Assembly: GCF_044324875.1 (NCBI RefSeq) | Contig: NZ_CP172186.1 | Direction: 5' to 3' (one strand) | DNA: 64,000 nucleotides | Origin: Escherichia coli | GTDB taxonomy: Bacteria; Pseudomonadota; Gammaproteobacteria; Enterobacterales; Enterobacteriaceae | Shown here: one piece after another, positions 35,301 through 38,300 of the stretch | Layout of the letters: every line of letters starts with the position of its first letter | Numbering within the stretch: the first letter of the stretch is position 1 | Position numbers: made by a program

Positions 35301-38300
35301 TCATCATAATCATATTACCCCTTGCTGGAATAATGTTATTTCTCTACTGAGTGAAGATGCGTCACTTGCTGGTGATACTTTTTGTAAGTGGCTTAATATT
35401 AATTATTCTTTATTGCCAAATGACTCGTTGCCTTTGACTGATGTTCAGTTCTCGCAATTACTTATTAAGGCTGTTACATCACCTCATATCAGTAAAGAAG
35501 CGTTAATAGCGATAACCATGGCATTTAGGATAACTCTTATTAATGTACCAGAAAACTTACCACTGAATAATGCTGCGGTACTAATCAAGCAAAAATGGCT
35601 GGCACCAACCAGTACTGTGTTTGAACAACTTGGTGATGCTGCCAACTTACTGATTTAGTGTATGATGGTGTTTTTGAGGTGCTCCAGTGGCTTCTGTTTC
35701 TATCAGCTGTCCCTCCTGTTCAGCTACTGACGGGGTGGTGCGTAACGGCAAAAGCACCGCCGGACATCAGCGCTATCTCTGCTCTCACTGCCGTAAAACA
35801 TGGCAACTGCAGTTCACTTACACCGCTTCTCAACCCGGTACGCACCAGAAAATCATTGATATGGCCATGAATGGCGTTGGATGCCGGGCAACTGCCCGCA
35901 TTATGGGCGTTGGCCTCAACACGATTTTACGTCACTTAAAAAACTCAGGCCGCAGTCGGTAACCTCGCGCATACAGCCGGGCAGTGACGTCATCGTCTGC
36001 GCGGAAATGGACGAACAGTGGGGCTATGTCGGGGCTAAATCGCGCCAGCGCTGGCTGTTTTACGCGTATGACAGGCTCCGGAAGACGGTTGTTGCGCACG
36101 TATTCTGTGAACGCACGATGGCGACGCTGGGGCGTCTTATGAGCCTGCTGTCACCCTTTGACGTGGTGATATGGATGACGGATGGCTGGCCGCTGTATGA
36201 ATCCCGCCTGAAGGGAAAGCTGCACGTAATCAGCAAGCGATATACGCAGCGAATTGAGCGGCATAACCTGAATCTGAGGCAGCACCTGGCACGGCTGGGA
36301 CGGAAGTCGCTGTCGTTCTCAAAATCGGTGGAGCTGCATGACAAAGTCATCGGGCATTATCTGAACATAAAACACTATCAATAAGTTGGAGTCATTACCT
36401 AACAAGAGATAAAATCCCCTTCTATATGCTTTCAAAAAATAGTATAAATCGTTATTCTGATATGAGTGATTTTATTCAATCCAATAATGAAACAACTCCA
36501 GAAAAGGCATTTATTAAAGAAGTTATGGGAACAGGGGACTGACACATGGATATAATAGAAAAAAGAATCACAAAACGACACCTCAGTGAAAGTAAATTAT
36601 CAGGTGTAAATTATTACAATTGTATATTTGAACGAATACAGCTTGACAACTTTAACTTTCGCGATTGTGAGTTCGAAAAATGTCGCTTCGTAAACTGCTC
36701 AATAAAGAATTTAAAACTTAATTTTTTTAAACTTATTGACTGTGAATTCAAAGATTGTTTATTACAAGGAGTAAATGCAGCAGACATTATGTTTCCCTGT
36801 ACTTTTTCTCTTGTAAATTGTGATTTGAGATTTGTTGATTTTATTAGTTTACGGTTACAGAAATCTGTTTTTTTATCCAGTCGCTTCCGTGATTGTTTAT
36901 TTGAGGAAACAGACCTTCGTAAATCTGATTTTACTGGTTCGGAGTTTAATAATACAGAGTTCAGACATTCTGATTTGTCTCACTGTGATTTTTCAATGAC
37001 AGAAGGTCTCGATATAAATCCTGAGATAAACAGGATCTTATCTATAAAGATACCACAGGAAGCAGGTTTAAAAATACTTAAACGAATGGGAGTGGTTGTA
37101 GGGGGATGAGGTGAGTAGACCCGCCGGTTGCCCGGACGGGCCCCTCCTCAGAACCGGACCTGCGGAACTACCGCATCCGGCTCCCGACAGATCAGTGTCC
37201 CCACACATATTTCAGAAAGAATGGAACATTGACTGAGTTCTCCATCTCGATGGGTATCCCAGCATTTTGAGAATCAGATCCAGCTTTTCTCATGTCATTG
37301 GGTGTGGGGTTTGAAGCCCAATGGAGCGGAAACGTACGCTAAGAAGCTAACTATATGATTTTAAGTCAATAAAGTCGTGGCGTTGTTAGGCAGGTTTACG
37401 TTGATTTGATTACCGAGTTTATTAACACTGAAAGTCCCTGAAACCGCATGGCTACTGGCATTGACGGGAAGAGTAAACAAAACCCTCGTTTTCTTTACTC
37501 ACCTCTTCTGCTCAAAAAATGAACTTAGCGTACGATCTCGTACGGTTGGGCCTCAAACCCCTTGTATCAATAGATTCAGTCAATGATCGGAAAGCAATGC
37601 CACGAATTTTCAGGTCTTCAATAATTCGGAGCAAATGTGAGAGTGAACGACCAAGTCGATCCAGTTTCCAGACTATCAGTACATCACCTTCGCGAAGTTC
37701 AGCGAGACAGGACTTAAGTCCCGGGCGATTATCACGAGCACCTGAAGCATGATCCTGATGTAAATGCCGGGGATCCACTCCGGCAGCAATCAACGCATCA
37801 CGCTGTAAAGCAACGTAAGCGTCAACGGAGCACCGTATTGACGCTTATTTATTGGTGAGTACTACGTTCCATGGCAGGAGTTCGTCAACTCGGTTGGAAA
37901 GCCATTCCGGCAGTACGCTCAGAATATGGCGCAGATACGCTTCCGGATCGATACCGTTCAGACGGCAGGTGCCGATCAGCCCGTACAGCAGTGCACCACG
38001 CTCGCCGCCGTGATCGCTACCGAAGAACACGTAATTTTTCTTTCCGAGACAGACTGCACGAAGCGCTCTTTCCGCTGTGTTATTGTCCGCCTCCGCCAGA
38101 CCGTCATCACAGAAGTTGCACAACGCAACCCAGTGCTTCCTGATATACCGGAACGCATCTCTCAGACGGCATTTTTTCGATAACGTGTGTTCTTTCTCCT
38201 GCATCAGCTTATACAGGGAAGTCAGTAGCGGTTTACTCTGCATTTGCCTGACCGCCAGGCGTTCAGACACCGGCAACCCGCGTATTTCGTGCTCAATGGC

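Follow-up and report, generated by a model that had tools for sequence, protein, structure and literature searches.

The stretch of Escherichia coli DNA analyzed here (64,000 nucleotides of contig NZ_CP172186.1, assembly GCF_044324875.1; referred to as the window) contains, at positions 37306 to 37561, one discrete non-autonomous Tn3-derived inverted-repeat miniature element (TIME). The element sits where two unrelated DNAs meet: the remains of a microcin B17 (mcb) operon on the left and a fragment of a resolvase gene (tnpR) on the right. Very probably, the best explanation overall is that a TIME carrying a res-like region, in its mcb-linked form, was joined to tnpR by replicative transfer and that insertion sequences (ISs) subsequently trimmed the locus. 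The preliminary description of this DNA had likewise recognized a non-autonomous, Tn3-derived miniature inverted-repeat transposable element (MITE) resembling TIMEs and IS101, and this assignment is borne out by IS101-like ends, by 35 distinct contexts for the same unit, and by two copies with their own 5-bp duplication. TIMEs as a kind of element and their mode of action are already known, and the 256-bp family is apparently unnamed. A 2026 list of TIMEs (PMC13367494) does not include it, and neither its terminal repeat strings nor the term "IS101-like" was found in any paper of the literature searched; as ISfinder and TnCentral were not part of this comparison, "unnamed" is provisional.

The element is bounded by two inward-facing 38-nucleotide (nt) arms (Table 1), which a repeat search recovered as 30/38 (79%) complementary and 180 nt apart. 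By a binomial estimate, the chance that 2 kb of sequence contains, at any position, a 38-nt inverted repeat (IR) with 30 or more matches is on the order of 1e-5. Each arm has GGGG as its outer terminus and CTAAG as its inner one. The left arm (IRL) matches the IR at the tnpA end of Tn1000, taken from plasmid F, at 33/38 positions, and the right arm (IRR) matches it at 31/38; compared with the IRs of a Tn5403-like transposon, the values are 33/38 and 35/38, respectively, confirming the earlier view of two Tn1000-like repeats around some 180 bp of noncoding DNA. IRL also matches a Tn1000-like IR in locus L011 (34/38) and shows the highest conservation within the family (mean pairwise identity, 0.95). 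IRR is closest to the tnpR-end IR of the Tn5403-like transposon, a likeness that extends about 15 bp inward, and matches the IRR of IS101 at 34/38. TIMEs are recognized by Tn3-type terminal IRs of about 38 bp (GGGG...TAAG), a small size (~50 to 500 bp) without a transposase gene, and a target duplication of 5 bp (sometimes 6 bp). Both arms have such ends, with 31 to 35 of 38 positions shared with the Tn1000 and Tn5403-like IRs, and the unit is 256 bp long; the duplication is seen in the family, in loci L016 and L069 and as split duplications in arrays, and the window copy has none, with GGTGT on the left and TTGTA on the right.

No open reading frame (ORF) lies wholly inside the unit. The right repeat had been placed within a TnpR-like reading frame, and a mechanical ORF (37512-37793, minus strand) does cross it, but the resolvase homology does not enter the repeat, stopping at 37562, the base just beyond it. 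Rfam searches detected no RNA family inside the unit, and promoter and terminator scans gave results at chance level. The predicted RNA fold is strong (-88.8 kcal/mol; z, -5.9) and consists of pairing of the terminal repeats and of an internal dyad, as in any MITE; a role as a structured RNA, promoter, or terminator was rejected.

Searches for other copies, which the preliminary description had proposed to make by BLASTN, recovered 68 full-length copies (79 to 100% identity) in 35 distinct flank contexts from Enterobacterales plasmids, genomes, and metagenomes, and in all 68 the similarity stops at the GGGG...CCCC boundaries. In about 100 IncF plasmids, a copy is found downstream of mcbG at 99 to 100% identity, and copies at 79 to 89% identity are present in unrelated plasmid contexts in Enterobacter and Klebsiella. 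Among 100,044 species-representative genomes, full-length copies (80 to 86%) were present in Rosenbergiella, Buttiauxella, Pantoea stewartii, Ewingella, and Rahnella. A metagenome scan yielded 56 further full-length copies, and none was found in viral contigs. The 256-bp unit, with the same IRL/IRR asymmetry and the same interior, recurs across at least eight genera; none of the inspected records annotates it. Duplication of 5 bp at the target is a hallmark of the Tn3 family. Two copies have perfect 5-bp duplications of their own, GTTTA in Pantoea stewartii (L016) and TTCAA in L069, each of which would arise by chance at about 1/1,024 per copy. A sister subfamily (88.7% identical) includes two direct copies 635 bp apart, an arrangement similar to TIME-COMP that lacks outer duplications (L003 3001-4145 and L060), and a single recombined copy (L079) that bears the outer flanks of the two-copy form; the coexistence of these forms shows that recombination has taken place between copies. 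A contig of a Desulfobacteraceae metagenome-assembled genome (L017 1405-1599), in which contamination is possible, contains another, distinct element; it is about 195 bp long and has inverted Tn3-type ends, and one end matches IRL at 37/38 positions.

The preliminary description had regarded the element as consisting of IRs only, which does not hold for its interior. On the minus strand, the interior is homologous to and collinear with the whole tnpA-tnpR intergenic region of the 3.87-kb Tn5403-like transposon (139 bp, 69% identity). The Smith-Waterman score was 176, compared with 67±10 for shuffled sequences (maximum of 129 in 1,000 shuffles), and the local alignment covers element positions 58 to 196. 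As negative controls, the res of Tn1000, that of the target transposon, and a Tn2-like res gave scores of 62 to 69 against the interior. A Tn1000/Tn3-type res was accordingly rejected as the source of the interior (62 versus 67±10), the positive control of IS101 against the Tn1000 res having scored 145. Two blocks within the interior, one resembling site II and the other a 30-bp dyad (Table 1), retain the arrangement of the larger transposon: the dyad has its counterpart in a palindrome beside the tnpA start, GAGTAAAGAAAAC-GGTC-GTTTTCTTTACTA, and the spacing between dyad and site II-like block is 42 bp in the element and 43 bp in the Tn5403-like transposon. In a MAFFT alignment of nine diverged family members with L024 and L025, the IRs and the two res-like blocks had conservation values of 0.86 to 0.95, compared with 0.74 for the spacers; the site II-like block alone had a value of 0.90. 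Homology and conservation together point to the interior as a putative res; indirectly, the occurrence of the sister subfamily in both two-copy and recombined single-copy form would fit recombination at this site by a cognate serine resolvase. Because it aligns with the res region of the Tn5403-like transposon, the unit appears to have the layout IR, res-like region, IR and to be a double-deletion derivative of a transposon of the Tn5403/Tn1000 cluster that has lost tnpA and tnpR.

The Tn5403-like transposon (L024 2560-6429) encodes only tnpA, res, and tnpR; its IRs match those of the element at 33 to 35 of 38 positions, and the sequences just inside the IRs are similar. However, its res is only 69% identical and the central block of the IRL of the element is of the Tn1000 type, and the element has neither tnpA nor tnpR. 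The true parent is therefore a relative of this transposon rather than the L024 transposon itself. The label "Tn5403-like" is based on gene content (tnpA and tnpR only) and on an IS26-cut fragment of the same tnpR in Klebsiella IncFII plasmids (L010 and L012), and not on comparison with a reference Tn5403 sequence; those fragments resemble the IS26-truncated Tn5403 of pKpQIL (PMC5142620). Several plasmid matches to the IRs only proved to be ends truncated by IS26 or IS110. Tn1000 (gamma-delta), a known helper of IS101, has similar IRs (33/38 and 31/38), but no similarity to its res or genes was seen in the element.

The flanks of nearly identical copies provide evidence for how the family moves. 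Among copies that are 99.6 to 100% identical, three right flanks are found opposite the mcb left flank, and two left flanks opposite the IncF right flank. In one metagenome contig (L077; QZLL01000351.1, 596-6265), the mcb left flank and a copy (T) are followed by AGATA, 5.2 kb of DNA with a ColE1-like origin, a second AGATA, and another copy of T in direct orientation. The second copy in this contig is truncated at about position 150. A 62.5-kb metagenome contig (OAVT01000079.1; L063-L065) carries three direct copies with the flanks AGATA/T/TATAA, TATAA/T/GTCTT, and GTCTT/T/IncF right flank. Through their split duplications, these contigs connect the mcb left flank of IncF plasmids with the IncF right flank. 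In total, seven cross-copy matches of 5 bp were observed, where chance would give about 1.2. Split 5-bp duplications of this kind are the mark left by replicative transposition when its cointegrates are never resolved.

The window copy belongs to the same mcb-linked group. Window positions 36400 to 37562 (1.16 kb) are 99.6% identical to an IncF mcb plasmid locus (L001), with homology starting at 36400, and the left flank is identical over 906 bp to IncF mcb plasmids. This homology ends exactly at the outer end of IRR, and homology to tnpR begins at the next base. The right flank of the IncF plasmids (TGGTTGACC), which lies upstream of a DUF6710 gene, differs from that of the window, and neither arrangement has a duplication (GGTGT/T/TTGTA in the window and GGTGT/T/TGGTT in IncF). 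The tnpR junction was found in only two PLSDB plasmids, pCh101 (NZ_CP127318; identical over the 371 bp tested) and CP070395. The tnpR fragment is 98.4 to 98.8% identical to an intact tnpR beside a Tn3-family tnpA in L007 and L008, so that its source is a different Tn3-family transposon, which carries an RHH/RelE toxin-antitoxin pair and has an IR of unrelated type (24/38). The missing halves of tnpR and tnpA and the IncF right flank were not found elsewhere in the window.

Table 1. Coordinates of the TIME, its subregions, and the adjoining features in the window
Feature	Coordinates	Strand	Description
IS1 copy	35632..36399	+	Terminal repeat at 35632 and IS1 ORFs; cuts mcbF; left boundary of the shared block
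mcbG	36546..37109	+	Pentapeptide-repeat microcin B17 immunity gene, Qnr-like; sole intact mcb operon gene in the window
Group II intron 3' end	37100..37305	-	End of ltrA plus domains V/VI; ends exactly at IRL
IRL	37306..37343	+	GGGG at outer end; Tn1000-type central block AATGGAGCGGAAACGTACG
IRL-adjacent interior segment	37344..37390	-	Aligns with the Tn5403-like intergenic region on its tnpR side; tnpR start degenerate, AAAATCATATAG versus GAAATCATGCTG
Res-like block, "site II-like"	37391..37428	-	GTGTTAATAAACTCGGTAATCAAATCAACGTAAAC on the minus strand; BLAST match to Tn5403-like positions 3184-3218
30-bp dyad	37471..37500	.	GAGTAAACAAAAC-CCTC-GTTTTCTTTACTC; putative resolvase crossover site; family conservation, 0.89
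IRR	37524..37561	-	Outer end at 37561; Tn5403-type central block AACCGTACGAGATCGTACG
tnpR fragment (serine resolvase)	37562..37814	-	Internal part of the gene; codons 1 to 16 and the C-terminal half are missing; serine-recombinase domain matches
IS66-family fragment	37815..38500	-	Terminal repeat GTAAGCGTCAACGG and C-terminal 217 transposase codons; NF033517 profile positions 253-385 of 387

On the left, the remnant of the group II intron starts immediately after the mcbG stop codon and is also present in the IncF microcin B17 plasmids. It is 92 to 94% identical to plasmid loci, including 94% to L026, a locus with an intact ltrA-containing intron, and Rfam model RF00029 was matched at 37110-37185 (minus strand) over the full model (34.4 bits; E value, 1.4e-4), below the gathering score. 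The IncF arrangement is itself a TIME-associated truncation. On the right, the terminal repeat of an IS66-family element (GTAAGCG...) starts at 37815 and cuts the 5' end of tnpR. Truncation by an IS66 end had been proposed and is upheld; the end given for the fragment, 37812, was about 3 bp short, as the tnpR fragment runs to 37814.

The mechanism proposed by analogy with IS101 begins with a transposase of the Tn1000 or Tn5403 type acting in trans, which would nick the ends of the element and carry out replicative strand transfers. Donor and target DNA would be fused into a cointegrate with a copy of the element at each junction, and this cointegrate might then be resolved, or not, by a cognate resolvase or RecA. 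The window copy would descend from the one located where the microcin B17 operon ends in IncF plasmids, and its right end would have been joined at the target TTGTA to the tnpR of an unrelated, resident Tn3-family transposon, either through cointegration between replicons or through intramolecular transposition accompanied by deletion. Either route would give the order mcbG, intron remnant, TIME, and tnpR fragment without a flanking duplication. IS1 on the left and the IS66-family element on the right would later have trimmed the block and removed the surrounding DNA. The window junction, mcb-left/T/TTGTA-tnpR, is best read as having the form of the first half of a cointegrate event.

The preliminary description had the element inserted into an intact resolvase gene that was afterwards truncated by IS66 alone. 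The right junction is indeed precise at the end of the IR and lies within tnpR, which the IS66-family end cuts, so the part of the claim that places the right end against tnpR stands. The left flank, however, is the group II intron remnant downstream of mcbG, as in IncF mcb plasmids, with no tnpR or tnpA sequence on that side and no 5-bp duplication; the absent duplication and the intron flank therefore argue against a simple insertion into the resolvase gene, which is highly improbable. The rationale offered for it, a preference of Tn3-family elements for res and resolvase regions, is not valid support: it is the Tn5053/Tn402 family that preferentially inserts at res sites and in resolvase genes, and such a preference is not known to be documented for the Tn3 family. 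It had also been recognized that the two repeats might belong to different full-length Tn3-family transposons, as a natural end of each; the 180 bp between them would then be a matter of chance. The difference between the arms in the central block, Tn1000-type in one and Tn5403-type in the other, would fit such an origin, but the 256-bp stretch recurs as a unit in the 35 contexts and at least eight genera, twice with its own duplication, and IS101 has the same asymmetry between its arms, leaving a chance proximity of two transposons with a negligible probability.

A two-step history is harder to separate from direct replicative joining, as it yields exactly the same junction. According to this alternative, a second copy inserted into tnpR on another replicon with a TTGTA duplication, and homologous or res-site recombination between the copies then swapped the flanks. 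The res-like region carried by the element would be suited to such an exchange, and the sister subfamily includes both the two-copy L060 and the single-copy L079 with its outer flanks. Against this, no copy flanked on both sides by tnpR was found among 72,556 PLSDB plasmids and 5,426 complete E. coli genomes, the scheme requires one event more than direct replicative transposition, and the window copy is only 0 to 1 nt from the mcb-linked copies, so that no crossover point is visible. The two-step history is unlikely on these grounds.

Replicative joining of the mcb-linked TIME to tnpR remains the preferred explanation, and several observations weigh against it. The reciprocal junction (the C-terminal part of tnpR, TTGTA, and IRL; searched with a 201-nt chimeric query) was absent from the same plasmids and E. 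coli genomes, and the cointegrate origin of the window junction is therefore inferred from the other arrays. Simple insertion was seen in only 2 of the 35 contexts. Among the species-representative genomes, with nine genome matches inspected, no autonomous transposon had the exact IRL core. The central 4 bp of the dyad are CCTC/GAGG, compared with GGTC in the Tn5403-like element, and we know of no experimental mapping of the res in the Tn5403-like intergenic region.

IS101, the 209-bp TIME of pSC101, is one of the closest known counterparts. It is likewise non-autonomous, has the same layout of IR, res, and IR, and carries the same two types of ends in the same arrangement (30/38 for IRL and 34/38 for IRR compared with the 256-bp element). 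The shared asymmetry consists of AATGGA.CG.AAACGTACG in IRL (Tn1000 type) and AACCGTACGA.A.CGTACG in IRR (Tn5403 type). However, the interiors are unrelated (62 compared with 63±10 for shuffles): that of IS101 matches the Tn1000 res (145 versus 69±10), whereas that of the element matches the Tn5403-like intergenic region (176 versus 67±10). Identity with IS101 was rejected, as only the IRs are alike and the lengths differ. IS101 was first discovered through cointegrates. The Tn1000 transposase mobilizes IS101 despite the asymmetry between IRL and IRR (PMC4133298, PMC13367494). IS101 contains a functional res and forms cointegrates when the Tn1000 transposase is supplied in trans (PMC13367494; PMC4133298, citing Ishizaki & Ohtsubo 1985). 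An apparent copy of IS101 was also seen near a solo Tn5403-type IR in a Klebsiella plasmid (L013 1360-1564).

The known TIMEs of Enterobacteriaceae have been compiled with their sequences by Gomi & Yano 2026 (PMC13367494). Among them, MITESen1 (ISfinder), whose sequence was taken from Table S2 of that study, has the same 256-bp length, belongs to the TIME class, and occurs in the same hosts, Enterobacteriaceae plasmids, but its IRs match at only 21/38 and 19/38 and its interior is marginally similar (92 versus 63±10; reached in 4 of 300 shuffles). As both IRs and interior differ, MITESen1 was rejected as the same element, and the equal length is coincidental. TIME244/MITEEc2 (PMC13367494) is also an Enterobacteriaceae plasmid TIME in which the interior corresponds to a putative complete res of the parent lineage, and it too often lacks simple duplications and lies at points of rearrangement. 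TIME244 derives from the Tn21 subgroup (IR GGGGTCGTCTCAGAA...), whereas the element belongs to the Tn1000/Tn5403 IR cluster of the Tn3 subgroup, and no sequence similarity between the two was seen.

The 64-kb window lacks a gene for a Tn3-family transposase; its longest ORF (1,165 amino acids) encodes an autotransporter according to the matching plasmid record. Unless another part of the cell supplies a helper, the element is therefore a passive scar here. The likeness of its IRs to those of IS101 and Tn1000, together with near-identical copies in several contexts, suggests that a Tn3-family transposase may mobilize it in trans; judging by the IS101 precedent, a transposase of the Tn1000 or Tn5403 type would be the likely helper.

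Several other features were observed in the window. Only the 3' end of mcbF is left, and the DNA upstream of IS1 is unrelated. The IS66-family fragment is followed by a vapBC toxin-antitoxin pair (38540-39183), and a complete ISEc8-like IS66 copy is found at approximately 39.7 to 42.0 kb. A second serine recombinase gene (52889-53479, minus strand) lies close to an RHH/RelE-type module at 53879-54539, which is 93% identical to that of the transposon from which tnpR was derived; the part of that transposon absent from the junction is not what is found here. Three apparently nested Tn3-family-like terminal repeats, all in one orientation, are present between 4162 and 4435, at a distance of about 3 kb from the IncFII repA: GGGGGCCGCTTGGAATTCGGAAAATAAACCACGTTAAG at 4162 (Tn21-subgroup/IMU-like), GGGGTTCTAAGCCGAAAACCTAGAAAATTCCGTAACC at 4207, and GGGGTTTGAGGCTCAGTGGAACAATAACCGCCGTTAAG at 4398 (Tn1000-like). 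They look like stacked truncated transposon ends.

In about 100 IncF plasmids, the family explains the abrupt junction where the microcin B17 operon ends, and in the window it explains that of the mcbG remnant; in its arrays, TIME cointegrates that stayed unresolved and have split 5-bp duplications can be seen in nature. Being Tn5403-like, the family forms a third lineage of TIMEs with a res, next to those of IS101 (Tn1000/Tn3-like) and TIME244 (Tn21-like). Annotation pipelines miss TIMEs, yet the 256-bp element coincides precisely with the breakpoints at which plasmids fused or suffered deletions. As known TIMEs flank qnr genes and mcbG is Qnr-like, its association with a TIME is worth watching. 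None of this overturns the current view of Tn3-family biology, and a specialist in transposons is unlikely to be surprised. More tentatively, the near-identical copies in more than 12 contexts raise the possibility of a family of res-carrying TIMEs that is undescribed, has been active recently, mainly leaves unresolved cointegrates, and serves in Enterobacterales plasmids as a device for replicon fusion and segment capture. If this is the case, an IncF microcin plasmid would have acquired a ColE1-type plasmid through capture by this family, and mcbG would have been carried by it into a large mosaic plasmid, the mixed IR types would allow the use of either a Tn1000-type or a Tn5403-type transposase, and the portable res could serve plasmids as a site of multimer resolution or as a recombination hotspot.

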